DNA from: a bacterium
GTDB lineage: Bacteria; Hinthialibacterota; Hinthialibacteria; Hinthialibacterales; Hinthialibacteraceae
Reading direction: 5' to 3'
Assembly: GCA_963662285.2 (NCBI GenBank)
Contig: CAXXMV010000006.1
Coordinates: 128,001 to 192,000, forward strand
Length of the DNA: 64,000 nucleotides
Within the stretch, counting starts at the first letter, position 1. The number at the start of each line of letters is the position of its first letter. Made by a program: the position numbers and the translations under genes. The notes below the pieces were generated by a model. It was given only the letters and a program-made list of their open reading frames with translations. It was not told where the DNA came from and did not search any database. This document shows, one piece after another, positions 10,492 to 49,900 of the stretch.

Positions 10492-11664
10492 ATGACAAAA
10501 CCAGAATTGAGAATAGTATTAACAGTATTTTTGACAACAATCCTCACGCTCAACATTTCTGCGCTTGAATTCGATCAACCTCTACCAGAGTCGCTTACCA
10601 AACAATTTCAAGATACACTGAATCAATATACAGAAAAAATAAAACCCGGATATATTCCCGGATATTCCGCCGCCGTCCATATCGAAGGAATCGGAATGTG
10701 GATTGGCGTTACCGGAAATGCTGTGAAAGGAGAAACAATCAGGACAGACGAGGGAGTAGAATACCCGGGCGCAATCCCTCTACAACACGGAGATCAATTC
10801 CATATTGGAAGCCTTACTAAACAGTTCGTTTCTGTTGTGGTATTGCGTCTTATGGAAGAGGGCAAACTAACTTTGGATGACACTCTGGAGCAGTGGGTTC
10901 CAGGTGGTATAGTAGCCAACGCTGAACTGATCACCATACGTCAATTACTAAGCCATACGAGTGGAGTATACGATAACACATCAGTACCAGTTTTTTTTAA
11001 TACTGTTAAACTCGATCCAAATTCGCCCGGCACGGCCAAAGAAATAATCGAATACGTAAAAGATAAAAACCCCAAATTTTCTCCTGGACAACCAGGACAG
11101 TTCAGTTACTCAAATTCAGGATACACCCTCCTCCACATGATAGTTGAAGCAGTTACGGGAAAACCTTTTGTAGAAGAATTCCACAGACTCGTGACTCAAC
11201 CACTAAACTTGAATGAAACTTATTATGGCGGTTTTGAAGAAATTACTGATTACTCTACTCTGGGCTATGAAGGAAGTAAGGTTGTATCAAATGACATGCA
11301 TTTATCATGGGCTGCGGGTGCGGGAAACATAGTCTCCACCGCCGACGACGTTTGCCGTTTCGCTTCAACGATATTCGGTGGATATTATCTTCAACCGGAA
11401 ACACTAATAGAAATGACTACTCCCATTGAAAACAACTATGGCCTTGGAGTTGGTGTTGCAGGAGAAGACTGGAAATACGTATTTCATTCAGGTAGTATTT
11501 TTGGATTCTGCTCAGATTTTATATATAATGCGAATTGTGGGATCACGGTGATTTGTCTTCAAAATTCATCATCGACTAATAATACGCGTAACATTAATAA
11601 TAAGTTCTTAAAAATATCCTTTGAATGGATTGAAACCTCAGTTCAGGAATGGTCTCTGTATTGA
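10492..11664 (+). CDS. Secreted serine hydrolase (beta-lactamase/D-Ala-D-Ala carboxypeptidase-like)
   Basis: Signal peptide, SxxK (SLTK), LLSHTSG, YSN and HSG motifs; GGAG RBS before ATG 10492; ends SVQEWSLY. Confidence 0.9.
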   Translation: MTKPELRIVLTVFLTTILTLNISALEFDQPLPESLTKQFQDTLNQYTEKIKPGYIPGYSAAVHIEGIGMWIGVTGNAVKGETIRTDEGVEYPGAIPLQHGDQFHIGSLTKQFVSVVVLRLMEEGKLTLDDTLEQWVPGGIVANAELITIRQLLSHTSGVYDNTSVPVFFNTVKLDPNSPGTAKEIIEYVKDKNPKFSPGQPGQFSYSNSGYTLLHMIVEAVTGKPFVEEFHRLVTQPLNLNETYYGGFEEITDYSTLGYEGSKVVSNDMHLSWAAGAGNIVSTADDVCRFASTIFGGYYLQPETLIEMTTPIENNYGLGVGVAGEDWKYVFHSGSIFGFCSDFIYNANCGITVICLQNSSSTNNTRNINNKFLKISFEWIETSVQEWSLY

Positions 11665-11885
11665 TGTATACTTAGCGTTAGTTTAACTATTTATTGACAT
11701 CTTTGCTGAATCGCCTAATATCAATATAGAGATATAATAAAACCGCGGGGGGCGGAAAACTTATATCAAAATTCATTAATCAAAATATAACGAGCTGATG
11801 ACAATGGTTTACAACCATTTCCCAAAGGACATTTGCGTCATTCATTTGACATTGGCAAGTTATATTTTATGAAAGGAACTAGAAA

Positions 11886-12482
11886 ATGAAAATTATCGGC
11901 GTTAATTGCAGTCCCAGAAAAGGTCAAAGCACATATCAGGCGCTTGAAATCAGCATGGGCGGTATAAGGGAAAAATATCCAGAAATAACCACAGAGATTA
12001 TTGAACTGGCGGGACGGGATATTCAAGGCTGCGTCGGGTGTGGAGCATGTAAAAAGGAATTGAAATGTCAGATTGATGATGATTTCAATTCTCTGATTCC
12101 ACAATTAGCCGATCAAGAGATTATTGGTATGATAATCGGCTCTCCCGTCTACCTGGGAACAATGACATCCCAATGTAAGGCATTTTTAGACCGCAGCTGT
12201 TCTCTTCGCCGTAATGGCTTCCTTTTCCGCAACCGGGTCGGAGCGGTGCTTGCGGTAGGCGGCATAAGGAATGGCGGACAGGAATTAACCATCCAGGCCG
12301 TCCAGGCGTCATTGCTTATTCACGACATGGTCATCGTAAGCGATGGCAACGATACAGCCCATTTTGGCGGCACATTATGGAATGCCGCCGATAAAGGTTT
12401 AGATAGTGATGAGTTCGGCGTAAAACTAGCCAAAAATGTTGGACTAAGAGTCGCTGAAGTTGCAATGATGATGCATAAATAA
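11886..12482 (+). CDS. Iron-sulfur flavoprotein / flavodoxin family protein
   Basis: SPRKG, CVGCGAC....C Fe-S motif, GSPVY, RNGGQE. Confidence 0.9.
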   Translation: MKIIGVNCSPRKGQSTYQALEISMGGIREKYPEITTEIIELAGRDIQGCVGCGACKKELKCQIDDDFNSLIPQLADQEIIGMIIGSPVYLGTMTSQCKAFLDRSCSLRRNGFLFRNRVGAVLAVGGIRNGGQELTIQAVQASLLIHDMVIVSDGNDTAHFGGTLWNAADKGLDSDEFGVKLAKNVGLRVAEVAMMMHK

Positions 12483-12685
12483 TTATTCCAAGCCGTCTTA
12501 TTTATTACAGTAACATGTTTAAGAAAGATAACCGTATTCGCGTCATCAGATAACTGAATGGACTCTCTGGATTTTGGGCGCCGGTAAGAGATTGTACTTT
12601 TTCACTATCACCCATCCGGGAAACATGCTTAGACAATTGCTGACAATCGCTCTATTATCATTTATTCAAAAATTAGGAGTTCATA

Positions 12686-13858
12686 ATGATAAAACCAGGA
12701 TTCAGAATAGTTTTCACTGTATTTTTGACAGCAATCCTTCCGGTCATCACGTCTGCGCTTGAATTCGATCAACCTCTACCAGATTCGCTTACCGAACAAT
12801 TTCAACATACCCTGGATAACTATACACAAGATTCAATACCCGGTTATAGTCATGGGTATTCCGCCGCCGTCCATATCGAAGGGATAGGAATGTGGATTGG
12901 CGTCACTGGCAACGCGGTAAGAGGGAAACGAACTGCCACAGACAACGGGACTGAGTACCTGGGCGCAATCCCCCTGCAACCCGGAGATCAATTTCATATT
13001 GGAAGCCTCACCAAACAGTTTGTTTCTGTTGTGGTATTACGTCTTATGGAAGAAGGCAAACTAACTTTGGATGACACTCTGGAACAATGGGTTCCCGGCG
13101 GTGTAGTAGCCAACGCCGAACTGATCACCATCCGTCAATTGCTTAGCCATACGAGTGGAGTATACGACAACACGGCATTACCAGAGTTTTTTAGTACTGT
13201 AACAATCGATCCAAATTCGTCCGGTACTGCCAAAGAAGTGATCGAATTTGTAAAAGATAAAACTCCAAAGTTTTCTCCTGGACAAGAAGGAAAGTTCAGT
13301 TATTCAAATTCCGGATACACGCTCCTCCACATGATAGTTGAAGCGGTTACAGGGAAACCATTTGTAGAAGAATTCCACCGGCTCGTGACTCAACCGCTCA
13401 GTTTGAATGAAACCTATTATGGCGGCTTTGAAGAAATGCCTGATTACCCCACTCTGGGCTATGAGGGAAGTGGAGTTGTATCAAAAAACATGCATTTATC
13501 ATGGGCGGCGGGTGCGGGCAATATAGTCTCTACTGCAGATAATGTCTGTCGTTTTGCCTCCACGGTATTCGGTGGATATTATCTTCAACCGGAATCTTTA
13601 ATCGACATGATTACTCCCATCGAAAGCGACTATGGACTTGGTGTTTGGATTATAAATGGAAATGGGAAATACATATTACATTCTGGTAGTATCTTTGGAT
13701 TCAGATCAGAAATGATATATAATGCGAATCATGGGATCACGGTGGTTTGCCTGCAAAATTCATCGTCGACTAATAACACGCGTAAAATCAATAGCGAGTT
13801 CTTAAACATATCCTATGATTGGATTGAAACGGTAGTTTATGAATGGTCTCTTTATTGA
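12686..13858 (+). CDS. Secreted serine hydrolase, close paralog of 10492-11664
   Basis: Same SLTK/YSN/HSG motifs and long identical stretches; ends VVYEWSLY. Confidence 0.9.
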   Translation: MIKPGFRIVFTVFLTAILPVITSALEFDQPLPDSLTEQFQHTLDNYTQDSIPGYSHGYSAAVHIEGIGMWIGVTGNAVRGKRTATDNGTEYLGAIPLQPGDQFHIGSLTKQFVSVVVLRLMEEGKLTLDDTLEQWVPGGVVANAELITIRQLLSHTSGVYDNTALPEFFSTVTIDPNSSGTAKEVIEFVKDKTPKFSPGQEGKFSYSNSGYTLLHMIVEAVTGKPFVEEFHRLVTQPLSLNETYYGGFEEMPDYPTLGYEGSGVVSKNMHLSWAAGAGNIVSTADNVCRFASTVFGGYYLQPESLIDMITPIESDYGLGVWIINGNGKYILHSGSIFGFRSEMIYNANHGITVVCLQNSSSTNNTRKINSEFLNISYDWIETVVYEWSLY

Positions 13859-13876
13859 TTTTCGCCTATCATAAAC

Positions 13877-13911
13877 GCCAAGGGCAAGACTGCAATGTGT
13901 CCAGCCCGTGA
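13877..13911. repeat. Degenerate copy of the CAAGGGC REP-like family
   Basis: gccaagggcaagactgcaatgtgtccagcccgtga resembles the reverse complement of 19607-19645. Confidence 0.55.
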
Positions 13912-13956
13912 TGCTATTTTTTCGTTTTTATGAGAATTGGTATTGTATATTTCCAT

Positions 13957-14724
13957 CTAGTTTAATGTGCGGTTGCGAGATGCGTCGTTGAGGATATTGT
14001 TATCCTGTTCTATTAATTGGCGCATTTTTTCCACATCTTCCGGCGTGCCGATGTCTCCCCAGAAACCTTTTAGGGGTACGGCCAGAATTTTCTTTTGGTC
14101 TTCGATCATGAGGCGAATGGCGTCGGGTAATTCATATTCACCTCGCGGCGAGAGTTTGACCTGTTTTATATAATCAAAGATAGACGGTTGAAAAGCGAAC
14201 AGACCGGAATTGTTCCATTTTGAGGTTGAAGAACCCTGGGGAGGTTTTTCGATGATTTGGGTTATTTGCTTGGTGTTTTCATCGAAAAAAACAGCGGCGC
14301 CCTTGTAGGGATCGTCGATCTGATTGACGCACAGCAGCCCATCTGCTTGTGCAGTTTTCCATATATCCAGAACTTGAGGATAGTTGATGGGATTGGTGAT
14401 TATGTCGCCGAAGGTTAACAAGAAGGCATCATGTTTTACATAATCTTCAGTTACCCGCAAAGCGCCCGCCGTGCCATCAAGAGATTCCTGGCGAACGTAG
14501 GTCATCGATAGGCCGAAAGACTTTCCATCTCCGAAATGGTTCTCGATCAGGTTGGCATGGTAGCCGGTTACTATGACGAATTCGGTGATTCCCGTACTTT
14601 TAATGGAGTCAACGATTTTTTCCAGAATCAGTTCTTTACCGATGTCTATCATCGGTTTGGGTTGATTGTCAGTTAGATGGCGCATGCGGGTTCCGCGCCC
14701 GGCTGCTAGAATAACGGCTTTCAT
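13957..14724 (-). CDS. Sugar-phosphate nucleotidyltransferase (NTP_transferase family)
   Basis: MKAVILAAGRGTRM, PKP, GTAGA, EKP, RGEYEL, DIGT. Confidence 0.92.
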   Translation of the reverse strand: MKAVILAAGRGTRMRHLTDNQPKPMIDIGKELILEKIVDSIKSTGITEFVIVTGYHANLIENHFGDGKSFGLSMTYVRQESLDGTAGALRVTEDYVKHDAFLLTFGDIITNPINYPQVLDIWKTAQADGLLCVNQIDDPYKGAAVFFDENTKQITQIIEKPPQGSSTSKWNNSGLFAFQPSIFDYIKQVKLSPRGEYELPDAIRLMIEDQKKILAVPLKGFWGDIGTPEDVEKMRQLIEQDNNILNDASRNRTLN

Positions 14725-14745
14725 ACAGGTATCCTTTTCTTGAGG

Positions 14746-14901
14746 TTAGAACTTTTCTTTAGTAACATCAGGTTTTTTGAGGTCTTTGAGCATAATGAGG
14801 ATATCGAAAAAGCCTTGAATAATCACCCACACGCTCATAATGCCAAAAGCGGTGACGCTGATGAAAAAGACGTATTTCCAGAGAATCATCCAAAAATCCA
14901 T
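14746..14901 (-). CDS. Small 51-aa membrane protein coupled to the sodium:solute symporter (absent from the ORF track)
   Basis: MDFWMILWKYVFFISVTAFGIMSVWVIIQGFFDILIMLKDLKKPDVTKEKF; its ATG overlaps the symporter stop (TAATG). Confidence 0.7.
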   Translation of the reverse strand: MDFWMILWKYVFFISVTAFGIMSVWVIIQGFFDILIMLKDLKKPDVTKEKF

Positions 14902-16490
14902 TATTTTGTCTCCTTAAGAGGTTCCTGCATTTGATTGTTATCAGGCCAGATAAGCGAGCCGAAAATCATGGCCAGCAGGCTTAAGCCCAGGGCGGATAAT
15001 CCCATGACGGGGGCGGTTAGTTCGAAGCCGAGAAGATTTTCAATGTATTGGTAATTTAAAAGGTCTCTGATTTTGCTAAGTCCTAAGATGGCGCTGAAGC
15101 CTGAGATTAACGCGAGGATGGCGCCGGTTGAACTGGCTCGTTTCCAATATAGACCGAAGCCAAGAACCGATATGGCCCCGGTGGAGTATATTGCTCCGGT
15201 GATTCCCATGTATTCCCAGATATCGTCTGAGCCTTCATACCATAATCCCCAGATCACTATGTAGATACCGATTAGTATCATTACAAATCGGGTTAAAAAG
15301 ACTTTGCCTTTATCGCCTAAAGGTTTTCCCTGACGTAGGGGATTGATGATATCCAACACGATAACCGATGACCAGCAGAGCAGGTAACTGTCGTGGGTGG
15401 ACATAAACGCGGCGATCATGGCGGCGGTTACCAGACCCAAAAGCCCTGTGGGAAGGATGTTGGCCAAAAAGATAGGCATGGCGTAAAGATTATCAAGAGC
15501 CTTGGCGCCGTTGGTAGGATTGAAGGCTTCCTGGAAAACTCCACCAGCGGTCATGATAAACACAAAAGCGGCGATACCTAAAAAGTAGGGGATCAGGAAA
15601 CGGATCAAAAAGGATAATGAAGAGAACATATATTGCCGTTTCACTACACTGGTGTTGCGCGCCGACAGAGCGCGGGTGACGGCTGTAGGCCAGATAGCGC
15701 AACTGACCAGACCGAGCACCGCCTGCCAGCTCATATAAGCCGGTCCGAAGCCGCTGCCTTTTACGGTAGGATCAAAACCGGATTCTCCTTTATGCTGCAT
15801 GACAACTTCGACCATAGCGTCCCAGCCGAAATTCTTCAGGCATAGAAAAACCACCAGCAAAAGTCCCATGGACAAGACCGTGAATTGGATGTAGTCGGCT
15901 AGAACCACCGAAACCATGCCGCCGAGGATGGTGTAAAACAGGATCAGAACAATCAGAGTAATCATTACGATAGGCAATAATCCGCCGGATGGATCAATGC
16001 CGGTTACGCCGACCACGAATTGAGAACCGATTTTGAGGAATAAGCCCATATTAAGGATTCCGCCAAATGCCAACAGAATGCCGCCCAGGATACGGGTTCG
16101 TCTGCCAAAGCGTTTCTCATAATATTCGGGGATGGTCATTACTCTGGTTTGCCGTAATCGCACGACAATGAAACCGGAAGCGCCGACTATAAAGGTTACG
16201 ATGCAGGCGATGACCGCGATATGAAAAGCGGCAAAGCCGCCTGTGAACCCTTTCTGCGCTGAATACATAATAGTAATCAGCCCCATCTCCGTGCCGGTCA
16301 TGGTGGCGACCGATAATGCCGTGCCCAGGTTACGACCCGCCACCATGTAGTCGCTGACGCCTTTGATGAAGCGGCTGGCGAATAAACCTATGAAAACAGA
16401 GATAGAGACATACCCGATGACGATGCACCAGTCTAAAGTGGTAAATGAACTGCTGGCAAAAACCGATTGTATTATTTCATTTGATTCCAT
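14901..16490 (-). CDS. Sodium:solute symporter family protein
   Basis: About 13-14 TM, DYMVAGR, TIPEYYEKRFG, LGGMVSVVLAD, AAFMSTHDS. Confidence 0.93.
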   Translation of the reverse strand: MESNEIIQSVFASSSFTTLDWCIVIGYVSISVFIGLFASRFIKGVSDYMVAGRNLGTALSVATMTGTEMGLITIMYSAQKGFTGGFAAFHIAVIACIVTFIVGASGFIVVRLRQTRVMTIPEYYEKRFGRRTRILGGILLAFGGILNMGLFLKIGSQFVVGVTGIDPSGGLLPIVMITLIVLILFYTILGGMVSVVLADYIQFTVLSMGLLLVVFLCLKNFGWDAMVEVVMQHKGESGFDPTVKGSGFGPAYMSWQAVLGLVSCAIWPTAVTRALSARNTSVVKRQYMFSSLSFLIRFLIPYFLGIAAFVFIMTAGGVFQEAFNPTNGAKALDNLYAMPIFLANILPTGLLGLVTAAMIAAFMSTHDSYLLCWSSVIVLDIINPLRQGKPLGDKGKVFLTRFVMILIGIYIVIWGLWYEGSDDIWEYMGITGAIYSTGAISVLGFGLYWKRASSTGAILALISGFSAILGLSKIRDLLNYQYIENLLGFELTAPVMGLSALGLSLLAMIFGSLIWPDNNQMQEPLKETK

Positions 16491-16728
16491 ATCTTACTAT
16501 CTCCCTGTTCGTTGTTAAGCAAATACATGTAATGAGATTCTCAGGAAAACCTGCTCAAATTTTATTTCAACATGTTTTTATTAATAATGCTAGGCGGGTG
16601 TTGATTCATTGAAGCGCTAATCAGAAAATTATCTGAGTAAGTTGCTAGTGACATTGCAAGTTAAATATGTTTATATAACAGATGAGAAATTATAAAATAA
16701 CATATTTGCGCTATAAGGAAAAATCATC

Positions 16729-18282
16729 ATGCTAAGAAAATTTCAACTTTCGCTTTTAGGTTTAATTGCTTTTTCTCTATTGTCAGTATCGGTCTGGTCT
16801 GGAGAACCGGATTTGCGGAATGCATTTATCATCAACGAGGATAATAGTCATTTCTATGGAGGGCGCGAAGCCGACCAGATGACATTGAAGGGGCTTCATG
16901 CTTTCGTAGATCAATACGCCGATACGGCGGTGACGCATCTTTTTTTGTGTCCCAATTCCATGCGCGCCAGTTTCCGCAGCAAAACCCGTGAAGCGATATG
17001 GGATTTGGTTGAAGGTAAATACCATTCAAGCGCTTGGACTAACAACGCCCGTTTGCTCTATAAAAGCGGCTTGGATCCCTATGCCGTATGGATTGACCGT
17101 TGCCGCGAGAAGGGTCTCTCGCCCTGGCTAACCATGCGCATGAATGATATTCACAGCGTGGATGAACCCTCTAACTTTATGCATTCTACTTTCTGGCGCA
17201 ATCATCCTGAATTCTGGCGGGTTCCCAACGGCTCCGCTTCACCCTGGCAGAACCGGGCTATGAACTATGCTCATAAGGAAGTCCGTGAACATCAGATGTC
17301 ATTTGTGCGGGAACTGTTGGAGTGCTATGATCCCGACGGTTTGGAACTGGACTGGATGCGTTTCGGCTGGCATTTCACTCCTGGCAAAGCTAAAGAAGAA
17401 GGCAAATATCTCGATGATTTCGTACGCGAAGTCCGCCAGTTAACCAAAGCATGGGCCAAGAAACGCGGTCATGACATACTGCTAAGCGTACGCGTACCGG
17501 CGCACCCTGATGCAGCGGCTGGTTTGGGTATGGATGGCGTTCTTTGGGGCAGGGAAGGTCTGGTTGATATGCTGGTTCCATGTCCTTTCTGGGCTACTTC
17601 AGATTTTGATATTCCAGTAGAACTGTGGAAAGAACGATTGGGAGACAAGGCGCAATCAGTCGTTATTGCTCCCGGTCTGGAGTATAACGCGCGTCCCTGG
17701 CCGGGAGGCGAGGCTGTAGCCAATTCGTTGTCATCCGCCTATGGTTTTGGGGCGTCCGCATTATCGCGGGGGGCTGATGCATTATATCTCTTTAACTGGA
17801 TGGATTCAGAAACGCGACCCGTGACTAACGATTCTTACCGGACGCTCTTGGAACGTGGTTTGGGATCAGATGTCGTATCTAAAACAATGCGCCGCCATCC
17901 AGTCTGTTTCCGGGATACGGTTCCAGAAGGTTTTCCCAACGGAGTGGCTCTTCCAGTGGAAGGTCCAGATGGGGGAGAATTTTCTATCAACATCGGCGCC
18001 AAGCCTTCTACCGGTAAGGTATGGTTGATTGCCGGATTGGAGCAGCGGGAAGGTATATCTGAAGCAGCGTTTACTGCGAAGATAAACGGCGTTGAAGCGC
18101 CAGCTGTTGTTGATTTATCTTATATCAAGGATATTGGCGGAAAATCAGCACGGGGAATTCGGTTCCTTTGTCCGCTAAGCGCCGTCCGTGATGGATTCAA
18201 CCAGATTGAAATCAAACAAAAACCAGGAACTCCAGCGCAACGCATTGTCTGGTTTGAGGTGCGGATTGATCCGTCATTGTAA
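16729..18282 (+). CDS. Secreted glycoside hydrolase-like protein (GHL10/DUF187-type TIM barrel)
   Basis: Signal peptide; NED, MRMND, HPEF, DGLELDWMR and YLFN motifs. Confidence 0.7.
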   Translation: MLRKFQLSLLGLIAFSLLSVSVWSGEPDLRNAFIINEDNSHFYGGREADQMTLKGLHAFVDQYADTAVTHLFLCPNSMRASFRSKTREAIWDLVEGKYHSSAWTNNARLLYKSGLDPYAVWIDRCREKGLSPWLTMRMNDIHSVDEPSNFMHSTFWRNHPEFWRVPNGSASPWQNRAMNYAHKEVREHQMSFVRELLECYDPDGLELDWMRFGWHFTPGKAKEEGKYLDDFVREVRQLTKAWAKKRGHDILLSVRVPAHPDAAAGLGMDGVLWGREGLVDMLVPCPFWATSDFDIPVELWKERLGDKAQSVVIAPGLEYNARPWPGGEAVANSLSSAYGFGASALSRGADALYLFNWMDSETRPVTNDSYRTLLERGLGSDVVSKTMRRHPVCFRDTVPEGFPNGVALPVEGPDGGEFSINIGAKPSTGKVWLIAGLEQREGISEAAFTAKINGVEAPAVVDLSYIKDIGGKSARGIRFLCPLSAVRDGFNQIEIKQKPGTPAQRIVWFEVRIDPSL

Positions 18283-18311
18283 TAGTTAATCTTGTTTGTC
18301 TTGAATTCATA

Positions 18312-18343
18312 TGGTGTGGGCTAGACCGTTTTAGCTCACACCA
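18312..18343. terminator. Hairpin between convergent genes (REP-like or terminator)
   Basis: tggtgtgggcta...tagctcacacca stem. Confidence 0.55.
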
Positions 18344-18354
18344 CCTGCTATATC

Positions 18355-19509: not shown

Positions 19510-19606
19510 TGTATTTATCCGCGTTATGGTTGTTCGTCAACGTTGCTCTTGGCGCCCGTCAATGTCATTAAGTTAAGTTATTTTCATTCTGCAATGGGTG
19601 GTTTGA

Positions 19607-19645
19607 TCAAGGGCTGACCGTAATGCGGTCTTGTCCTTGACACCC
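19607..19645. repeat. CAAGGGC REP-like palindrome
   Basis: tcaagggctgaccg...cggtcttgtccttgacaccc has the same ends as 3798-3830. Confidence 0.65.
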
Positions 19646-19680
19646 GTCTTGGCGTCCGTCATTAAATCCACATACTCCAA

Positions 19681-20952: not shown

Positions 20953-20991
20953 AATAAATACCCCTTAATAAATGCTTGCGTGATATAGTAA

Positions 20992-21107
20992 GCGTAGGGT
21001 GGATCAGCCTTACCGACCCACCAAAAATCCACCATATCCAATTAATCACCTACCTCCGCGTAGGCGTAGTTTGATCCGGTGGGTCATAAAACGCGACCCA
21101 CCCTACG
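20992..21107. repeat. Inverted pair of GTAG-type REP elements
   Basis: gcgtagggtggatc...gacccacca and ggtgggtc...gacccaccctacg. Confidence 0.75.
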
Positions 21108-21202
21108 GAACTTGGATAATATAGTTGGACTATATACAAAGATTTATACATGATATAGATATATAGCGAAAGATTTGGGATTATTTTTTTTTGAGGTAAA
21201 AA

Positions 21203-22183: not shown

Positions 22184-22234
22184 GTTGTCGCCTGATCTGT
22201 TAATCATATCCTTGATATATGAAAGGCCGTTATC

Positions 22235-23155: not shown

Positions 23156-23228
23156 AGATATATCGGATCAATACATAAAAAAATAATGTATATCAACAAG
23201 GTTATGAGCAACAAATAGCGAGGTTCCA

Positions 23229-35750: not shown

Positions 35751-35760
35751 GATCAACTCT

Positions 35761-37169: not shown

Positions 37170-37211
37170 GTAAGGTGGGCTAAAAGCCGCAAAGCGGCGT
37201 GTAGCCCACCA
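37170..37211 (+). repeat. GTAG-type REP element
   Basis: ggtgggctaaaagccgcaaagcggcgtgtagcccacca, nearly identical to 49929-49964. Confidence 0.8.
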
Positions 37212-37220
37212 AATTTTAAC

Positions 37221-38486: not shown

Positions 38487-38560
38487 GATGGTTGCCTACT
38501 TTCAATACGTGTTATAACTTATTTTTTATGTAAAGGCGATTAATAGCGTTATTGATTTGC

Positions 38561-38588
38561 TTACTTACTTACTTACTTACTTACTTAC
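38561..38588. repeat. Tetranucleotide microsatellite (TTAC)7
   Basis: ttacttacttacttacttacttacttac, overlapping the stop codon of the ABC ATPase gene. Confidence 0.9.
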
Positions 38589-39288: not shown

Positions 39289-39290
39289 TA

Positions 39291-41168: not shown

Positions 41169-43024
41169 TTTTTTAACTCCTGAGGAGAGAATTCGTTCCA
41201 TATTCCATTCTCATCAATTATTAATAAATCTAAATCTCGTTGTAATTCTAATTCAGCCATGCGGTAATTAACCATAGCCGAAGTAAGTGAGTTTTGTGAT
41301 GCAAGCAAGTCTCTTTGAGCGTCCAAAACATCACGAATGACCGCCCGTCCCGCTTGCAATTTAAGGTCTGTCATATTTACCCGTCTTTGATTGAGTACGA
41401 CGGACTGAGCTTCAATTTGCAGTCTTTCCCGCGCTTCCTGTAAATCACGCAATAGACCGCGAATGTTTAATTTGATTGAATCCTCTAAATCCTGTAAATC
41501 ACGCACGGCGCGTTCCAGAGAGAGTATGCTTTGCCGATAGGTTGCGATTTCACGGGTGCGTTCTATGGGTAAATCCAAAGAAACAACAGCGTTATAGCGG
41601 CCTTTCTCGAAATCAAGATCAAGATTATCCGCCCGGCTGGCCGAACCCAAACTGCGCCCTTCACCAACCGCAGCGCTGCCCAACAAGTTGAATTCAGCCC
41701 GTAAAGCATCCGCCGCTACAACCACATTGCGTTGCGCGTCATATACATTGCCTTGCGCTATACGCAGATCGAGCCGGTTATCTAAAGCCAATTGAATAGC
41801 TTGGCTCTCTTCTAATTCCATGGGACCGGCGTTATCCATAGTGAACGGTTCCAAAGTAACCGGAGCGTCAGCGGGAGGAACCTCTTCTCCATCCGCTTTT
41901 ACAGAAACCTCTCTGATCAAACTTTTGGCGGATTGGGTTAATCTATCTAACTCAGCCCGGTCTAATTCGATTTCAACATCAGGAGGCAACCCAAGTTGGA
42001 TTTTCAATGAATCTAAACTGCTTTGATATCTGAATTGAGAGCCTATCCAGGAGTTGCGTGAACTGTATTCCTGCTGGATGGATTGATCCACGTCGACCGG
42101 GTCTTGTTTTCCGGCGTCAGATAACCGCCGGATCAGCCGGGTGGATGTAATTGATCTACGGTAGTTGGCTTCTGCGTTATCAATCTGGTCAATAACTTGC
42201 AAGGTTGATAAATAGGTATTGGTCATACTAACCGCAAAAGTGCGTTTGTATCGTTCGAAATCGTAAATGGCGTAAAGCGCATTACGCTCGGCTTGAATCA
42301 AAGGTTCCGCTACGATATGACGCCCGGCGCCGCGCAGCAAAGGAATCGAAATAGAGGCGTCGCCGAAAAGACTGTAAGACGAAGCGCTGAACGGATTAAG
42401 CATTTTAGCAATATCAAGACCTATGCGGGATGTTAAAGTGATTCCGTTTAGGAACTTACGGGAGTAATTGGCCAGTCCGGTGTTTTCGCTGCCGCTGGTT
42501 GTTTCATTCCCGCCCAGGTCGGCGCTCAGACTGCTGTCTATTGATCCCGCGAAGGTGTGGCGGAAATTATCACGTTGCAGATCAAGATTGAGCGCCTCAC
42601 GAAAAACGGTTTCCTTGCTGGATTGATATTGCCGATTGTTTTGCGCGGCAATTTGTAGAACATCAATCAGCGTCAGTTTTAACGGATTTTCGGGATTAAA
42701 AGATGTGGCGTTTTTAATATCTTCAGCATCGAGATAATCATCCTTGGGCCAATGTTCGATTGGTTCCAGGTTTTTGGCGCCTAATGAGGCTGGACTCGAA
42801 TAGGGTATCTTTTGATCTATCATCAATCTTCGGCGTAGAGTATCCGCAGGCGGCTCTACCGAAAACGGCTCAATTTTCCCCAATGCTTTCATCTGTTTCT
42901 CTTCGATGATTTTGTATGCAGTACGGTCAACATTTTCTCTATGTTTGCCTGCTGTTGAGCAGCCAGTAATTATGAGAATCATAAGACAAGAAGCATACAT
43001 ACGGCCATTTTGTAAAATATTCAC
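41165..43024 (-). CDS. TolC-family outer membrane efflux lipoprotein
   Basis: Lipobox ITGC, OEP repeats (ALDNRLDL, DVLDAQ); first gene of the efflux operon. Confidence 0.85.
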   Translation of the reverse strand: MNILQNGRMYASCLMILIITGCSTAGKHRENVDRTAYKIIEEKQMKALGKIEPFSVEPPADTLRRRLMIDQKIPYSSPASLGAKNLEPIEHWPKDDYLDAEDIKNATSFNPENPLKLTLIDVLQIAAQNNRQYQSSKETVFREALNLDLQRDNFRHTFAGSIDSSLSADLGGNETTSGSENTGLANYSRKFLNGITLTSRIGLDIAKMLNPFSASSYSLFGDASISIPLLRGAGRHIVAEPLIQAERNALYAIYDFERYKRTFAVSMTNTYLSTLQVIDQIDNAEANYRRSITSTRLIRRLSDAGKQDPVDVDQSIQQEYSSRNSWIGSQFRYQSSLDSLKIQLGLPPDVEIELDRAELDRLTQSAKSLIREVSVKADGEEVPPADAPVTLEPFTMDNAGPMELEESQAIQLALDNRLDLRIAQGNVYDAQRNVVVAADALRAEFNLLGSAAVGEGRSLGSASRADNLDLDFEKGRYNAVVSLDLPIERTREIATYRQSILSLERAVRDLQDLEDSIKLNIRGLLRDLQEARERLQIEAQSVVLNQRRVNMTDLKLQAGRAVIRDVLDAQRDLLASQNSLTSAMVNYRMAELELQRDLDLLIIDENGIWNEFSPQELKK

Positions 43025-43084
43025 TCAGCGCCTCCAAAGATAATGATCAGAAACTACATGATTTAGCTGGTTTTGCCATTTGCG

Positions 43085-43415
43085 GGTGCGCAAATTTTGC
43101 TCACCTAAGTCCCAGTATTATCTAATCTTACTATCAATATTCGTCGTTAGCAATTATTAAATTGTTTCGTTTTTTTTTGGAAAAAAATTGATGATCCATA
43201 TGGATGTGATATTATTATAAACCTCGAATTTTCCAAGTGTAATACAATCAGAAAATTACTGTTTCATTTTCGCCCAAAAAAAATATTCAATCATTTTGAA
43301 ATTATTTGAGTTTTTTTCATATAAGTATGTGTAGTTTGAGAGATTTTGATATTAACGTTTTAAAGCAGTAGTTCAAAATCCCCCCCCAAGATGGTTCTTT
43401 GCGCAAATTTTGCGC
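43085..43415. promoter_or_regulatory. Two copies of a GCGCAAATTTTGC(G/T)C dyad in the divergent promoter region
   Basis: ggtgcgcaaattttgctcacc (43085-43105) and gcgcaaattttgcgc (43401-43415). Confidence 0.5.
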
Positions 43416-43572
43416 TTTTAATGTATATTAACACTTATCAGAACCTTATCATGAAAAGAACTCTATCCGCTATAACTGTGGGAATATCTGTTATCTGCGT
43501 GATATCCTCTAAAAAATTCTCTAATCCATGATAGATTAGTGTAAAATTGATGCAATGAACTGGTGAGAGGTT

Positions 43573-45078
43573 ATGATGAAGATATTTCGTTTTGGATGCG
43601 TCGTGATCTTATTTTTATTCACTAATGCCGCATGCGCCCGGACAGGTGAGCCGGAGGTTCGCGAATCGATCCTGGCGGGGGCGTGGTACAAAGAGAGTAA
43701 GGCTGATTTGACAGAACAGGTCAGTGGATTTCTAGATAAGGTTCCGGCTTACGCCAAAGAGGCGAACCGCGTCACGGCGTTGATCGTTCCACACGCCGGG
43801 TATGAGTGGTCGGGGCAGACGGCGGCTTATGCTTATAAAGCATTGAAGGGCGCTAAGTATCAGCGCGTGGTAGTGCTGGCGCCATCGCATCATACTTCAT
43901 TCCAAGGCGGCTCGATTGCTGATGTGAAAGCTTACCAAACTCCAATGGGACGCGTTTCCTTGGATGAGCAGGCTTGTAAGGCGCTCTTGGAGAGTGAACT
44001 GTTTTCGCATAACGCCTCAGCTCATACACAGGAGCATAGCCTGGAAATCCAACTGCCTTTTTTACAGCATTTGCTGGGGGATTTTTCTCTGGTTCCGGTA
44101 GTGGTTGGGCAGATAACGCGCGGCGATTGCGAAGAGATGGCGGATTTGCTGCGTCCTCTGCTCGATTCAAAAACGCTGCTGGTAATCAGTTCGGACTTCA
44201 TCCATCAAGGTCCGCGATTCAGGTATCAACCATATAAAGAGAACATAAAGACCAATATCCGCCGCTTGGATTTCGCAGCGGTCAACCACATCCTGAACCA
44301 GGACGTACATGGGCTATGGGATTTCCTGCATACCACCCAGGCGACCATCTGTGGACGCAACCCCATTAAAATTGGATTGATGGCGCTGCCCTTGCAGACC
44401 AAAGTGGAATTCGTCCATTACGCAACTTCGGGGGATGCAACCAACGATTATAGTGAAACGGTCAGTTATTGCGCAATGGTGTTTCGTGAGGAACCAGAAT
44501 ACCTTAACCGTGAAGAATTCGATTGCCTGTTGCATATAGCACGTCAGACTTTGGTGGATAGTTTCGAGGCGGATAAGAGCAAGGAATATATTCTGCCAGA
44601 TGAGAAGGTAACCCAACGCTTGAAGGATAAGAAGGGCGTCTTTGTTACTCTCAAAAAACAAGGCCGTTTAAGGGGATGCATCGGTCATATGCAATCGCCT
44701 GAACCGCTCTATCGTAATGTCTCGCAGACCGTACTATCATCTGCTTTTCAGGATCACAGGTTTAACCAACTCACCAAAGAGGAACTCAAGGATGTGACAA
44801 TTGAAATTTCAGTCATGTCTCCCCAACAGGAGATAGAATCCTGGAAGCAAATCGTGTTGGGGCGCGATGGCATCATTATCAATAAAAAAGGAAAATCAGC
44901 GGTTTATCTGCCTCAGGTTGCTTTAGAGCAGGGCTGGGATGTTGAGGCTACCTTGAACCATTTATCTGAAAAAGCCGGATTAAAAACGGACGATTGGAAA
45001 GAAGACTGCAAATTTATCACCTTTACCGCTCAGGTATTCGGCGAAGGATATAAAACGCTGACCAAGGAAGAACAATGA
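43573..45078 (+). CDS. amrB: AmmeMemoRadiSam system protein B-A fusion (Memo-like + AMMECR1) with signal peptide
   Basis: PHAGY, EHSLEIQLPF, SSDFIH (Memo); GVFVTL, LRGCIG, DHRF, YLPQV (AMMECR1). Confidence 0.9.
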   Translation: MMKIFRFGCVVILFLFTNAACARTGEPEVRESILAGAWYKESKADLTEQVSGFLDKVPAYAKEANRVTALIVPHAGYEWSGQTAAYAYKALKGAKYQRVVVLAPSHHTSFQGGSIADVKAYQTPMGRVSLDEQACKALLESELFSHNASAHTQEHSLEIQLPFLQHLLGDFSLVPVVVGQITRGDCEEMADLLRPLLDSKTLLVISSDFIHQGPRFRYQPYKENIKTNIRRLDFAAVNHILNQDVHGLWDFLHTTQATICGRNPIKIGLMALPLQTKVEFVHYATSGDATNDYSETVSYCAMVFREEPEYLNREEFDCLLHIARQTLVDSFEADKSKEYILPDEKVTQRLKDKKGVFVTLKKQGRLRGCIGHMQSPEPLYRNVSQTVLSSAFQDHRFNQLTKEELKDVTIEISVMSPQQEIESWKQIVLGRDGIIINKKGKSAVYLPQVALEQGWDVEATLNHLSEKAGLKTDDWKEDCKFITFTAQVFGEGYKTLTKEEQ

Positions 45079-46088
45079 GCCTGGCATCACGGCGCACTAT
45101 ATTACAAACCATTGGCAAAACGTTGGCTTGCGGTCCTTTTATTATTACATCTAAAGCCGTATGCGGCGCAATGGAAACTCCGGGGATGCGCGGAAAGAGC
45201 AGGGTGATCGTCGCCCGTAAGGAAGGGGTTCTTCTGTCGAACAACCAGCTGGATATAAAATCAATGAACCAGATGCTCGACCGGACGGCTGGCGTTCTGG
45301 GCGACTCCAAGGATTCACTGGATATCTGGAGGAAACTGTTTAAATCCAGCGATATAGTGGGGCTCAAAGTAAACACCCTGGGAGGACGTATGCTTTCGCC
45401 CCATCCTGAATTGGTCTACGCCATAGCTGAACGTCTGGCGCAGGTGGGCGTTGATCCCAAACGGATTATCATCTGGGATCGCAGCGAACGGGAATTGCAA
45501 CACTCCGGTTTCGATGCAAATTCGGCGGCTGAACGGGCGCTGGTATTGGCGACGGATTCCAAAGGCATTGGCTACGAACAGGAACCGGAAATGAGCGGCA
45601 GCATCGGTTCCTGTTTTTCAAGGATCATCTCGAAAATCTGTACGGCTATGATCAATGTCGGCGTCTTGAAAGACCACGATCTTTCGGGGATTTCAGTGGG
45701 TATGAAAAACCTGTTCGGACTAATTCATAATCCTAACCGTTATCATTTCGACGTGCATAAAGACCCATACCTGCCCGATCTATGCCTTCACCCATATGTA
45801 AAAGATAAACTGCGCTTGACCATCTGCGATGGCTTCCGGGGGCAGTATAACGGAGGCCCGGCCTACAAACCCGGCGCGGTGTGGAATCACGACGGGATTC
45901 TAATGTCGCAGGATCAAGTGGCGTTGGATTCGGTGGCCGCCGATATTATCGAGCGGGAACGTCTCAAGCATAACCTGCTGTCGTTTAAGGCCATCGACCG
46001 CGAGCCGCTATACTTACAACTGGCTGAAGAGAAACGACTGGGCATAACCGACCGCTCACGCATTGATATCAAAGAAATTTCTATCTAG
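45075..46088 (+). CDS. DUF362 domain protein with Tat signal
   Basis: SRRTIL Tat-like motif; VGLKVN, LKDH...S..MKN.FG, GGP, D.VALD. Confidence 0.85.
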   Translation: MSLASRRTILQTIGKTLACGPFIITSKAVCGAMETPGMRGKSRVIVARKEGVLLSNNQLDIKSMNQMLDRTAGVLGDSKDSLDIWRKLFKSSDIVGLKVNTLGGRMLSPHPELVYAIAERLAQVGVDPKRIIIWDRSERELQHSGFDANSAAERALVLATDSKGIGYEQEPEMSGSIGSCFSRIISKICTAMINVGVLKDHDLSGISVGMKNLFGLIHNPNRYHFDVHKDPYLPDLCLHPYVKDKLRLTICDGFRGQYNGGPAYKPGAVWNHDGILMSQDQVALDSVAADIIERERLKHNLLSFKAIDREPLYLQLAEEKRLGITDRSRIDIKEISI

Positions 46089-46099
46089 AGGATTGAGTC

Positions 46100-47257
46100 A
46101 TGAAACATGAACTAACCAGACGTGATTTTATATCGGGATCAATGTGCGCCGGGTGCGCCTTAGCTGCTGGCGCTGGAGTTATGCTCAACCCACAGACCAG
46201 TTGGGCAATCTCGCAGCCTGAACTAACCAAAGAAGTTTCTGATAAGGAAGCTAAGCATTACGATAAACTCGACGACCTGAAAATTCAATGCAAATTATGC
46301 CCCAAAGAGTGCCGGGTGGCGGATAGCGAACGGGGCTATTGCGGAGTGCGTGAGAATGTCAAAGGCGTCTACAAAACTCTGGTCTACGGACGACCCTGTT
46401 CGTTGAACGTTGACCCCATTGAAAAGAAACCGCTGTTCCACTACCTGCCGGGAACCACGGCTTTCTCAATGGCCACAGCGGGTTGCAATATCGAATGTAA
46501 GTTCTGTCAGAATTGGGATATCTCGCAGTTCCGCCCCGAACAGATCAGGATGTATGATCTCCCGCCACAGGCGACGGCGAAACTGGCGAAAGAAGCGCGC
46601 TCGAACACCATCGCCTATACCTATTCCGAGCCGGTAATCTTTTATGAATACATGCTAGATACAGCGGTAGCTGCGCGTGAACTCGGCATGGGCAGCGTGA
46701 TGATTTCTAACGGATACATCCAGGAGAAGCCGCTGCGCGAACTGCTGCCCAATCTGACGGGAGTCAAGATCGATTTCAAAGGATTTACTGAAAAATTCTA
46801 TAAAGAAACCTGCTCCGGTGAATTGAAGCCTGTTTTGAAAGCGCTTGAAATCATCAAGGAATCGGGCGTCTGGCTGGAACTTGTCATCTTGATTATTCCC
46901 ACCCTCAACGATGATGATAAAGAGAACCAGGCTATGTGCGAGTGGATTGTCAAACATCTGGGCGCTGACGTCCCCATCCACCTGACCCGCTATCACCCCA
47001 TGTATAAAATGAAGAACATCCCTTCTACTCCGGTAACGACGCTGGAGCGGCTACACAAAATCGCTCTCGACGCCGGGATCAATTACGCATACATCGGCAA
47101 CGTCCCCGGACACCCATCAGAACATACCGTTTGCCCGAAATGTAAAAAGGTCTTAATCCGTCGCATCGGATACCGGATCAATATTGAAGGATTAGAGAAT
47201 GGTAAGTGTAAAGCATGTGATACAGCGATAGCCGGAGTATGGAAAGCTAGTGGGTAG
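46100..47257 (+). CDS. amrS: AmmeMemoRadiSam system radical SAM enzyme with Tat signal
   Basis: TRRDFI; CKLCPKEC, DPIEKKPLFH, GCNIECKFCQN, YTYSEP, YIGNV and CPKC. Confidence 0.93.
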   Translation: MKHELTRRDFISGSMCAGCALAAGAGVMLNPQTSWAISQPELTKEVSDKEAKHYDKLDDLKIQCKLCPKECRVADSERGYCGVRENVKGVYKTLVYGRPCSLNVDPIEKKPLFHYLPGTTAFSMATAGCNIECKFCQNWDISQFRPEQIRMYDLPPQATAKLAKEARSNTIAYTYSEPVIFYEYMLDTAVAARELGMGSVMISNGYIQEKPLRELLPNLTGVKIDFKGFTEKFYKETCSGELKPVLKALEIIKESGVWLELVILIIPTLNDDDKENQAMCEWIVKHLGADVPIHLTRYHPMYKMKNIPSTPVTTLERLHKIALDAGINYAYIGNVPGHPSEHTVCPKCKKVLIRRIGYRINIEGLENGKCKACDTAIAGVWKASG

Positions 47258-47272
47258 TGTGTAGTAAGTAGC

Positions 47273-47309
47273 GCGTAGGGTGGGCTAAAAGCGGTAGCGT
47301 AGCCCACCA
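47273..47309 (+). repeat. GTAG-type REP element
   Basis: gcgtagggtgggctaaaagcggtagcgtagcccacca. Confidence 0.8.
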
Positions 47310-47557
47310 GAGCCACTCAATAAATACACATGATGTGTTAACAATCCTGGTGATCCTTCCATCCTGACCACCCAGATTCAGAAAATAACAATCCCTTTTT
47401 AATAAACTCTACTAACTTAAACATCTCAAATACATTATCTACTGTTGCGCCTATATGTAATATATGCTATGTTGAAAAACATCTATTGCTATTCTTAATA
47501 ATACGATTTGTTTTGTCTCACCCTATAATCCACTAATCATTGTTCTGGAGGCTTCTT

Positions 47558-49900
47558 GTGAAACACCTTATTAGCGTTGTTGTCTTTCTGTTTGTGATGG
47601 TTGCTCAAGGATTTGCGCAAAATATCAATACTCCCGAGAATTTCCCCGATCCCAAATTCCGCGCTTTGGTTGAACAGTATATGGGAGTTCAACCTAGTGG
47701 GTCATTTACTGCTGAGCAAGCGGGGGCTAAAAAAGGAGTATTCGATATTAGTTACCAGGGTCTAACTATTCTGTCTGGAATTGAGTTCTTCACTGGATTA
47801 ACTGAATTGGCTTGCGAAGCAAATAAATTGACCAAACTTGATGTTTCAACAATGACTAAATTGCAAACCTTGCGTTGCAGCGACAACCGGATTGGATATC
47901 TGGATCTTACTAAAAACACGGCTTTAACCAAACTGCGTTGCGCAGCAAACCGGTTGTCCAATTTGGATCTTCCCCAAAATCCTGCAATGCAATACCTGAA
48001 TTGCGGCAGCAATTTATTATCCAGTCTTGATCTATCTGTGAATACGGAATTGATTGAGATAACCTGCAATGATTGCCAATTGAATGAACTTGATCTGACC
48101 AAAAATACTCAATTAAAGTATCTCGCGTGTCATGGAAATTTTCTGAAAAATCTGGATGTAAGTCTGAATACTGCTTTGATTAATTTATCTTGTTATTCAA
48201 ATTTTATAAATGAGTTAGATATCTCCAATAACAAGGCGCTAGAATCCCTGAGTTGTTCAAAAAACCAATTGCAGCATTTAGATGTAACTAATAATAAAAA
48301 CATAGCTACTCTATTTTGTTATGATAATATGTTATCAGAGTTAGATATTTCCCGGAACATAAGGTTATCATGGCTGGATTGCCGTACAAATCAATTGACT
48401 AAAATTGATATTTCCACCAACCCTCTTCTTGTGTATCTTTATTGCAGCAACAATTTAATAAGTGATTTGAGTTTAAGCGGAAATACAAAACTGAAGGAAC
48501 TCAAATGCAGTAATAACCAATTGTCCAGCCTTGATCTATCCAACAATGGGTCTTTAGTTTTGCTTGAATGCAACAATAACCAATTAACCGCAGTGGACTT
48601 TACCAAGCCCCAATATCTGGCGGTTCTGGACTGCGCCAACAATCAGTTTGGGAACCTGGATTTTTCTAATAATAAAATCCTGACATTTCTGGATTGCAGC
48701 GGTAATCAATTAACTCAACTAAACCTAGCCGTTAATGCAAAACTGGGGTGGATCGATTGTGATAATAATCAAATCGCTGAACTCATATTGCCCGAAAGCG
48801 ATGATTTATTTATTTTGGAATGCGCTGACAACCAACTGACGGAAATCGATGTATCGCATTATACCCAATTATACCGGCTAGATTTCAGTCGCAACCACCT
48901 AACCGGCCTGGCAGGCATTGTTTCTAATGAGCATTTATCTAAAGAGGTTTCCTTGGATATCAGAAACAACGATCTTTCAGATGATGATTGGAGCGACGTT
49001 GATATCCTGCTTGAGCGCATTGGCGAGCCTCATTTTTACTTGGAACATGCTGCGGTGCAATCCGGTTTAGTATATTCTCCCCAAAACGGATACGATCCCT
49101 ATTATTCCGGCGGAGATTATCCTTATCAAAATCCCTCTAAGGAACGGCTGATTTCTATGCAGGGAACCTGTAACACGCGCGACTTGGGAGGCTATAAAAC
49201 AGTTGATAACCGTTCCGTCAAATGGCGTATGCTCTATCGTTCAGATTTTCTTGATTTAACTACTGAAGATTTGAACATCTTTGCCAGCCTGAATCTTCGT
49301 AGCGTATGCGATTTACGAACCGCTGACCAGCGGGATGCAATTACCGACCGGTTTCCTTATGAAAACAGGCCTGGAATTCTATCTTACCCAATTGAAATAT
49401 ATACAGATATTGATTTTCCCACATCCGAAGATTTTTATATTTATTCCAACCAGCATTTTGTTTTGGATTTTTCTGATTACTTCGCCGATATTTTCCAAAG
49501 GCTTCTTGAGCCGGAAAATATTCCACTGCTCTTTCATTGTAAGAGTGGTAAAGACCGGGCCGGATTTCTCGCCGCTATGATTTTATCCGCTCTAGGAGTT
49601 CCACGCGAAACAGTATTAGAAGATTACCTGCTTACTAATTATTACCGGGAAGAAGGAAACCGGGAAAAAGTAAAATGGCTGTCATCATATGACTGGCCCG
49701 TCCGAATGGCATTAAATGCGTATTTAGCCTATCCAAGTGCAATTCAAGCTGCTTTCGATACGATTGATGAAACATACGGTTCGTTTGATAATTACTTGCA
49801 GGAAGGCCTGGGCGTAACGCCGGAAATGCGCTCCCAATTGCAGGCAATATTCCTCGAACCAGCAGAAATTACGAATATATCCAATTGGTCTTTGTATTAA
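47558..49900 (+). CDS. Secreted internalin-like LRR protein fused to a tyrosine/phosphoinositide phosphatase (Y_phosphatase3)
   Basis: GGAGG RBS before GTG 47558, signal peptide, FPDPKFR cap, 21-aa LRRs; NTRDLGG, YRS, DLR, HCKSGKDRAG, DYLLTN; ends ISNWSLY. Confidence 0.88.
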   Translation: MKHLISVVVFLFVMVAQGFAQNINTPENFPDPKFRALVEQYMGVQPSGSFTAEQAGAKKGVFDISYQGLTILSGIEFFTGLTELACEANKLTKLDVSTMTKLQTLRCSDNRIGYLDLTKNTALTKLRCAANRLSNLDLPQNPAMQYLNCGSNLLSSLDLSVNTELIEITCNDCQLNELDLTKNTQLKYLACHGNFLKNLDVSLNTALINLSCYSNFINELDISNNKALESLSCSKNQLQHLDVTNNKNIATLFCYDNMLSELDISRNIRLSWLDCRTNQLTKIDISTNPLLVYLYCSNNLISDLSLSGNTKLKELKCSNNQLSSLDLSNNGSLVLLECNNNQLTAVDFTKPQYLAVLDCANNQFGNLDFSNNKILTFLDCSGNQLTQLNLAVNAKLGWIDCDNNQIAELILPESDDLFILECADNQLTEIDVSHYTQLYRLDFSRNHLTGLAGIVSNEHLSKEVSLDIRNNDLSDDDWSDVDILLERIGEPHFYLEHAAVQSGLVYSPQNGYDPYYSGGDYPYQNPSKERLISMQGTCNTRDLGGYKTVDNRSVKWRMLYRSDFLDLTTEDLNIFASLNLRSVCDLRTADQRDAITDRFPYENRPGILSYPIEIYTDIDFPTSEDFYIYSNQHFVLDFSDYFADIFQRLLEPENIPLLFHCKSGKDRAGFLAAMILSALGVPRETVLEDYLLTNYYREEGNREKVKWLSSYDWPVRMALNAYLAYPSAIQAAFDTIDETYGSFDNYLQEGLGVTPEMRSQLQAIFLEPAEITNISNWSLY

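Follow-up and report, generated by a model that had tools for sequence, protein, structure and literature searches.

Each of four C-terminal sorting signals, namely LPXTG, PEP-CTERM, GlyGly-CTERM and the C-terminal domain of the type IX secretion system (T9SS), has pointed the way to a dedicated machine. The T9SS C-terminal domain is a folded module of 70–100 residues, and the beta-signal of the beta-barrel assembly machinery (BAM) is read after Sec export. Here we describe a nine-residue C-terminal tail on three proteins encoded in a 64,000-nucleotide stretch of DNA from a bacterium of the Hinthialibacterota (hereafter the window; contig CAXXMV010000006.1, positions 128,001 to 192,000, assembly GCA_963662285.2) and on about 176 proteins of the whole genome. 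The tail shares with PEP-CTERM/exosortase that it is a C-terminal tag on dozens of unrelated signal-peptide proteins per genome in certain environmental lineages. With the T9SS C-terminal domain (type A, PF18962/TIGR04183), it has in common the lack of a membrane anchor and the occurrence on Sec-exported hydrolases and binding proteins, and with the BAM beta-signal its shortness, the lack of a transmembrane helix, the position at the extreme C-terminus and an aromatic last residue. We propose, with a probability of roughly 55%, that it is a new C-terminal sorting or anchoring tag without a transmembrane helix that acts after Sec export.

The genome-wide survey used 5167 non-overlapping crude open reading frames (ORFs) of at least 100 residues from the whole 7.29-Mb genome, the start codons of which are uncertain. 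W-x-[LIVM]-[YF] forms the C-terminus of 109 of these 5167 genes, compared with 1.43 expected from the internal rate of the same four-residue pattern (576 in 2,081,594 positions); this enrichment of approximately 76-fold occurs at the terminus only. With a wider regular expression that also accepts a final H or Q, and F or Y for W, the number rises to 149 genes, and a further 27 have the motif followed by one or two trailing residues, mostly D, E, N, K or Q. Including these 27, the full tail T-x-[VI]-x-[DNE]-W-x-[LIM]-[YFH] has about 176 carriers, or approximately 3% of the proteome. A nine-residue position-specific scoring matrix with a threshold of at least 14 bits matches 141 C-termini (0.07 expected), and its 27 matches elsewhere, among 2.07 million positions, mostly lie one or two residues from an end. 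In the 109 tails, T occupies position -9 in 74, V, I or L position -7 in 106, and D, N or E position -5 in 73; the remaining columns are W (-4), S/E/Q/M (-3), L/I/M/V (-2) and Y/F (-1). Since positions -16 to -10 hold just 0.16–0.62 bits each, the motif is nine residues long. The same tails use four Thr, four Val and six Leu codons, Ser as both TCN and AGY, and all three stops (TAA in 70, TAG in 29 and TGA in 10). Codons at the conserved positions vary freely, and conservation is therefore at the level of the peptide and not of the DNA, as the original prediction, made on three tails, had claimed. Its core pattern also holds genome-wide, but the consensus T-x-[VI]-x-[EN]-W-S-L-Y was too narrow, as position -5 takes D/N/E/G/S, position -3 S/E/Q/M and the last position Y/F/H. 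Likewise, the placement at the extreme C-terminus applies to most carriers but not to all: the motif is exactly terminal in 141, but one or two residues follow it in 27 others, and as many as 23 in some orthologs. The scan of the proteome that had been suggested as a check shows that the tail is not limited to a few proteins.

The carriers are largely exported proteins of many families. Home-made heuristics applied to the crude ORFs assign a signal peptide to 130 of 176 carriers and to 919 of 4888 other non-pilin genes under a strict rule, and to 91% versus 43% under a laxer one, which agrees with the predicted enrichment among secreted proteins; by the same kind of call, roughly one in nine signal-peptide proteins has the tail. 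An RR motif lies near the N-terminus of four carriers. A GDSL lipase (G000:C3:377292-378080) combines a twin-arginine-like signal, R-R-S-F-F, with a variant of the tail that ends W-D-V-H; tails thus occur beyond proteins with Sec-type signal peptides. Single-linkage BLAST clustering divides 149 carriers into 79 clusters, and the carriers span at least 15 unrelated Pfam families. A random sample of 40 was drawn from 157 proteins (the 176 carriers minus 12 already examined and those above 1300 residues). It contained CBM9, periplasmic-binding/ANF and CotH+LTD proteins (four each), subtilases (S8) and LRR proteins (two each), and one each of phosphatase, beta-lactamase, GDSL lipase, beta-helix, DUF3160, S15 peptidase, FGE-sulfatase, CAP and alpha/beta hydrolase, with no family for 15. 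In approximately a quarter of the carriers, a lectin-like beta-sandwich with an ...F-x-D-N-[VI]-x-V... pattern, read by eye, directly precedes the tail. The tail partitions the exported proteome by family in a compartment-like manner: in the genome of the window, it is present on 11 of 12 CBM9 proteins and 15 of 19 CotH proteins (plus two CotH near-variants), and on none of 47 sulfatases.

The distribution across genomes was followed in a set of 41, comprising the genome of the window, 34 others of its class and six outgroups, with DNA patterns that catch only part of the tails. The strict pattern T-x-V-x-[DN]-W-x-L-Y-stop occurs in 31 of the 41, including that of the window (families f1, 19/19; f2, 4/4; f4, 1/1; f5, 6/7), and in none of the six outgroups, while the reversed-pattern control gave no match in any of the 41 genomes. 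With a looser pattern, tails were also found in the two families negative under the strict one. A single phylum genome, G028 (84% complete), has no tail under the looser pattern, and the phylum consequently provides no clean contrast set. A still stricter pattern, applied to one genome per species, yielded 61 loci, of which 41 lie in genomes of the same set, four in three records labelled Candidatus Sumerlaeota, and 16 are single matches, five of these in one Photobacterium gene. Taxon labels, including Sumerlaeota for the second group (three records), are those of the record titles; the labels on the 41 loci include 'Candidatus Omnitrophota' and 'Candidatus Hinthialibacteria bacterium OLB16'. 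The three Sumerlaeota-labelled genomes have 12–14 loose-pattern matches each, compared with 0 for the controls, and one Armatimonadota and one Kapaibacterium genome have loose-pattern matches at background level. Among 46 relatives of one Sumerlaeota-labelled genome, none of them in the set of 41, the strict pattern matched in 14 (one control match) and a medium pattern in 24 (87 matches compared with seven for controls), with at least three matches in 11 genomes, none in 22, and a range of 0 to approximately 10 per genome. In this second group, the tail is again carried by signal-peptide proteins, 17 of 25 without a Pfam family and the others of lectin, CBM, LTD, FG-GAP and beta-helix types, and almost none is homologous to a carrier in the genome of the window. 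As judged by these patterns, the tail is present throughout the phylum and in a second group labelled Sumerlaeota.

A comparison of homologs with different endings provides a further view of the tail. Of 62 database homologs of a 335-residue CBM9 carrier, 32 have the tail immediately behind the conserved final strand, and 20 end in V-P-E-P followed by a hydrophobic stretch and a basic cluster (read by eye), mostly after a dockerin-like F-A-D-F-L-x-L-S-x-N-F-G stretch; precomputed Pfam matches place PF07589 on two of the homologs and PF00404 on three. Another six end in a further short domain, ...F-Y-R-V-R, and four end otherwise. The ...F-Y-R-V-R ending is possibly a further terminal module of another lineage; P0163, P0165, P0168, P0170, P0172 and P0201 have a C-terminal extension of approximately 45 residues ending ...K-F-Y-R-V-R-[QR]. 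The T9SS C-terminal domain PF18962 is found on two homologs of a hydrolase of the window. Homologs of the window hydrolases outside the lineage end at the fold or bear other modules, and the tail is present on three of 120 listed hydrolase homologs, two of which are the window's own. The tail hence appears to occupy the slot held elsewhere by PEP-CTERM, a dockerin or the T9SS C-terminal domain. By analogy, one passenger family with interchangeable lineage-specific endings is the kind of evidence that established earlier sorting signals.

The tail differs from each of the described signals with which it can be compared. No Pfam or NCBIfam model matches it (Pfam on 3 + 18 + 40 carriers; NCBIfam on two 59-residue C-terminal pieces with E-values up to 10), in accordance with the predicted misfit to known sorting-signal models, and a hydrophobic stretch lies within the last 40 residues of only one of the 109 tails. 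PEP-CTERM shares with the tail an identical terminal slot in one CBM9 family, but the tail has no PEP motif, transmembrane helix or basic cluster. Of 79 proteins in the genome with a C-terminal helix and a basic end, none has P-[ES]-P. Exosortase PF09721 (EpsH family) was not found in the genome of the window or in families f1 (0/19), f2 (0/4) and f3 (0/2), but it did match in f4 (1/1) and f5 (7/7), both of them tail-bearing. Unlike LPXTG signals, the tails lack a transmembrane helix, and sortase PF04203 was not found in the genome of the window under conditions in which three control genomes matched. Compared with the T9SS C-terminal domain, the tail has nine residues to which its information is confined; PF18962/TIGR04183 did not match the carriers scanned, and the translocon protein SprA (PF14349, SprA_N) was found in 0 of 35 phylum genomes and two of six outgroups. 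In contrast to proteins with a BAM beta-signal, the carriers have soluble enzyme or lectin folds and are not barrels, and the positions W(-4), L(-2), Y(-1) do not alternate as in a beta-signal. The genome encodes one BamA, and the barrel-like proteins of this organism have a classic beta-signal ending, ...Y-R-F or ...x-R-F, which differs from the tail. Six tandem paralogs of approximately 690 residues at G000:C6:1100745-1113460, probably an array of barrel proteins, all end in ...G-K-L-T-Y-R-F, the classic outer-membrane beta-signal. Dockerin type I is a duplicated calcium-binding segment of approximately 60–70 residues; its model PF00404 matched none of the carriers scanned and was found only on tail-less homologs. 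With the WxL domain PF13731, a Gram-positive cell-wall domain of approximately 160–190 residues with two W-x-L motifs, the tail shares just the letters W-x-L, and Pfam gave no match to it on the carriers scanned. A full-text literature search did not find the tail described. In passages of PMC9324843, which describes the phylum, and of PMC8092238, the tail is not described; 'C-terminal' occurs in neither, nor does 'secret' in the former or 'secretion system' in the latter.

Conservation among orthologs is exemplified by a small beta-sandwich carrier, the tail of which is kept in 18 of 18 orthologs of approximately 260 residues (50–73% identity), one of them named by its source as Candidatus Hinthialibacter antarcticus. 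W is nearly invariant in these proteins, the final position varies between Y, F, H, Q, R and A, and a single residue follows the tail in four of the 18. In the AlphaFold2 (AF2) model of this carrier, the body has predicted local distance difference test (pLDDT) values mostly of at least 90, the last strand ends at residue 249, and the values fall to 64 and then 53 in the tail.

The three carriers of the window (Table 1) have N-termini that read as a basic followed by a hydrophobic stretch and resemble Sec signal peptides. The end coordinates and translated endings given for them in the original prediction were borne out. So was their description as two paralogous serine hydrolases (both PF00144, 80% identity to each other) and a protein of a different family, with LRR_4 and Y_phosphatase3 domains. 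The prediction had also placed the tail after the catalytic fold; the Pfam domains end at residues 375/394, 369/390 and 773/786, 13–21 residues short of the stop, and the last nine residues therefore lie outside the family models. The database copy of hydrolase 1 has 390 residues and starts four residues downstream of the ORF start; its AF2 model has a pLDDT of 91.6. No full-length ortholog of the LRR-phosphatase was found among 40 relatives. No other substantial ORF of the window ends in the motif; the single further match of the regular expression, a 63-residue minus-strand ORF ending ...HYFFMY, is taken as chance. A 198-residue flavodoxin-like/FMN-reductase-type ORF (window 11886-12482, +) lies between the two hydrolase genes, so that their duplication is not strictly tandem, and a transposase-like ORF (window 8668-9645, +) is located just upstream of the pair. 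Elsewhere in the genome, a 388-residue ORF ending K-A-S-Q occurs in 18 copies, with one unrelated 388-residue ORF of the same ending, and a 430-residue ORF ending H-R-F-F in ten full copies and one truncated; these repeated ORFs look like insertion sequences.

Table 1. Features of the window and two peptidase domains encoded elsewhere (window positions unless a locus is named)
Feature	Position	Strand	Basis
Serine hydrolase 1, beta-lactamase family, exported	10480..11664	+	ORF; signal peptide and tail; PF00144, E=4e-47, residues 98-375 of 394
Tail 1, T-S-V-Q-E-W-S-L-Y and TGA	11635..11664	+	translation
Serine hydrolase 2, paralog of hydrolase 1	12686..13858	+	ORF; signal peptide and tail; PF00144
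Tail 2, T-V-V-Y-E-W-S-L-Y and TGA	13829..13858	+	translation
LRR and Y_phosphatase3 protein, exported, tailed	47540..49900	+	ORF; LRR_4; PF13350, residues 538-773 of 786
Tail 3, T-N-I-S-N-W-S-L-Y and TAA	49871..49900	+	translation
Peptidase_C25 domains, full	G000:C8:487698-488843 and G000:C2:501550-502644		

The terminal enrichment, the exported nature of the carriers, the conservation of the peptide and among orthologs, the partition by family, the range, the slot equivalence and the misfit to known signals together argue for a sorting or anchoring tag. From these observations, we infer that the tail is read, and where and by which route. We propose a multistep scheme in which (i) carriers would cross the inner membrane by Sec, or rarely by a Tat-like signal; (ii) the tail would hang on a short linker off the last folded domain; (iii) a periplasmic or outer-membrane receptor would bind it; and (iv) this receptor would then pass the carrier across the outer membrane or hold it at the cell surface. 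The tail would take the functional place of PEP-CTERM, the T9SS C-terminal domain or dockerins. The likeliest exit routes would be machines like the type II secretion system (T2SS), which are the only outer-membrane protein exporters recognised in the genome of the window; it has eight secretin matches, at least three T2SS-like clusters (GspH/I/J/K, L/M-like, GspD), and type IV pilus and Tad clusters. More tentatively, and as a possibility that we rate well below an even chance, the tail may label a hitherto undescribed pathway of outer-membrane export or surface attachment common to two candidate phyla, may be the first linear signal for T2SS-type machines with approximately 100 pseudopilin paralogs, and would then be read by a new family of receptors or processing enzymes. 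The original prediction of a lineage-specific secretion or anchoring signal thus stands in part: enrichment, exported carriers and slot swaps agree with it, but the translocon or processing enzyme that it invoked was not found, and a sorting role is putative.

Several results weigh against a sorting or anchoring tag. No reader was found: each candidate tested was absent from the second group or else occurred in almost every genome, whatever its number of tails. No linear signal is known for T2SS substrates. Two carriers in the Pfam sample, PEMT and UbiA, are polytopic membrane enzymes, although these are probably chance matches. The tail is not always a free appendage, because AF2 places that of the window hydrolase inside the terminal helix, which spans residues 362–389 (H362-389) and passes through the tail, with a pLDDT of 82 in the last block. 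Among the small phosphatase orthologs of nine relatives, the motif is terminal in three and is followed by 1, 3, 6, 6, 13 and 23 residues in the other six. As these six and 27 of the 176 carriers have extra residues, a free terminal carboxylate is probably not essential. This would also set the tail apart from the ligands of PDZ or PapD-type periplasmic proteins, which read short C-terminal hydrophobic or aromatic peptides by strand addition and whose known ligands need a free carboxylate.

Some of the same evidence could be explained by a tail that docks rather than sorts. It might bind a receptor domain on a surface scaffold or pseudopilus non-covalently, as a strand or short helix, and thereby assemble enzymes and binding proteins on the cell in the manner of a minimal dockerin; we regard this as unlikely. 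Carbohydrate-binding, hydrolase and adhesin-like carriers would suit such a role, as would the dockerin-like stretch in the alternative CBM9 ending, with PF00404 on three homologs. A pseudopilus is brought into consideration by 103 GspG-like prepilin genes in the genome of the window, which encode proteins of approximately 200 residues with near-identical N-terminal helices and a C-terminal S-N-G-x-x-S-x-G-D-I motif (examples are L072:303-899, -, and L069:547-1155, +; none lies in the window). These genes directly adjoin 21 of 176 tail genes, compared with 6.8 +/- 2.4 in a permutation null (maximum 14, 300 permutations) and with 56 of 919 other signal-peptide genes (odds ratio 2.1, p=0.009), and the pairs are mostly co-oriented with short gaps. 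In the second group, a GspG-like gene directly adjoins the tail gene in three of 20 loci, once with overlapping stop and start, and one pseudopilin that shows 50% identity between the groups has tail genes that are not homologous as its neighbours in each. However, 46 of the 103 pseudopilin genes adjoin tail-less exported genes, no repeated receptor domain was identified, and the family was rejected as a reader that tracks the tail, since all 46 second-group genomes, with or without tails found, have 20–70 matches each, whatever the tail count. Co-folding of the globular part of a GspG-like pseudopilin (alignment of 15) with a 32-residue tail (42 rows) gave a score of 0.01 compared with a mark of 0.32, which speaks neither for nor against binding. 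A cleavage or transfer site, at which a periplasmic or surface peptidase would remove W-x-L-Y or what follows and link the new end to a surface glycan or lipid in a PorU-like manner, is improbable in our judgement. It would account for the tolerance of trailing residues, since these would be lost with the end, and the genome encodes two very large proteins of the Peptidase_C25 (gingipain/PorU) family (E-values 9e-74 and 2e-67; ORFs of 1846 and 1280 residues). This family is present in 34 of 34 phylum relatives, 46 of 46 second-group genomes and 39 of 41 genomes of the window's set, and in 0 of 14 well-known control genomes; against cleavage, it is also found in four of six outgroups and in second-group genomes without a tail found, and does not follow tail counts, there is no conserved small residue at a cleavage point, and SprA was found in 0 of 35 phylum genomes and two of six outgroups.

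The tail might alternatively influence the fate of a protein rather than its location, or have no role as a signal. As a quality-control handle, it would be bound by the PDZ domains of DegP/DegS-like or Ctp/tricorn-like proteases and tune chaperoning or turnover, an explanation to which we assign a low probability. PDZ domains bind C-terminal aromatic motifs of outer-membrane proteins, and the genome encodes four HtrA-like PDZ proteases, a Ctp, a tricorn-like protease, the gene of which adjoins a tail gene, and RseP. Such proteases are nevertheless close to universal, in contrast to a tail limited to two groups, the outer-membrane proteins of the organism itself have a different ending, ...Y-R-F, and a sharp partition by family together with swaps with sorting signals is unexpected of a degradation tag. 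As candidate readers, the PDZ proteins were only of the ordinary HtrA, Ctp, tricorn and RseP types, and none lay near secretins. That the tail is no signal at all but a shared structural end piece, such as a final strand or helix that related folds have in common, or an accident of composition in this lineage, is very improbable and largely refuted already. The lectin-like beta-sandwich that directly precedes the tail in about a quarter of carriers and the helical setting of the beta-lactamase tail in the AF2 model would be in line with such an end piece, but the tail comes after domains as different as alpha/beta hydrolases, phosphatases, subtilases, periplasmic-binding folds, beta-helices and CotH, it is absent from homologs outside the lineage, and the approximately 76-fold enrichment is confined to the terminus.

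Further candidates for a reader were considered and rejected. No match to a 642-residue protein whose gene lies next to that of a T2SS secretin was obtained in any of the 46 second-group genomes. The N-terminal part of a TPR-secretin is present in 43 of the 46 and does not follow tail counts; this 1057-residue secretin (L143:8423-11596, -; G000:C8:420434-420988 region) has an N-terminal TPR array and an STN domain, and its gene is clustered with a PilM/N fusion and a FliG-like gene (L143:5781-6803). Peptidase_C13 gave weak matches only, in three giant ORFs. The commonest families among the neighbours of tail genes were histidine kinases, pseudopilins, Gfo/Idh/MocA, FGE-type proteins and sulfatases, none of which is an evident receptor.

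The two uncultivated phyla in which the tail is found are thought to degrade polysaccharides, and the tail separates carbohydrate-binding and CotH-type proteins from sulfatases, with no membrane anchor needed. If it is a sorting tag, it would serve as a sequence-only predictor of the surface and extracellular proteome of these organisms, as a peptide bait for fishing out the envelope machine that reads it, and as a compact tag for biotechnology. It might then also provide a linear signal for crossing the outer membrane, which has long been missing for T2SS-type secretion.

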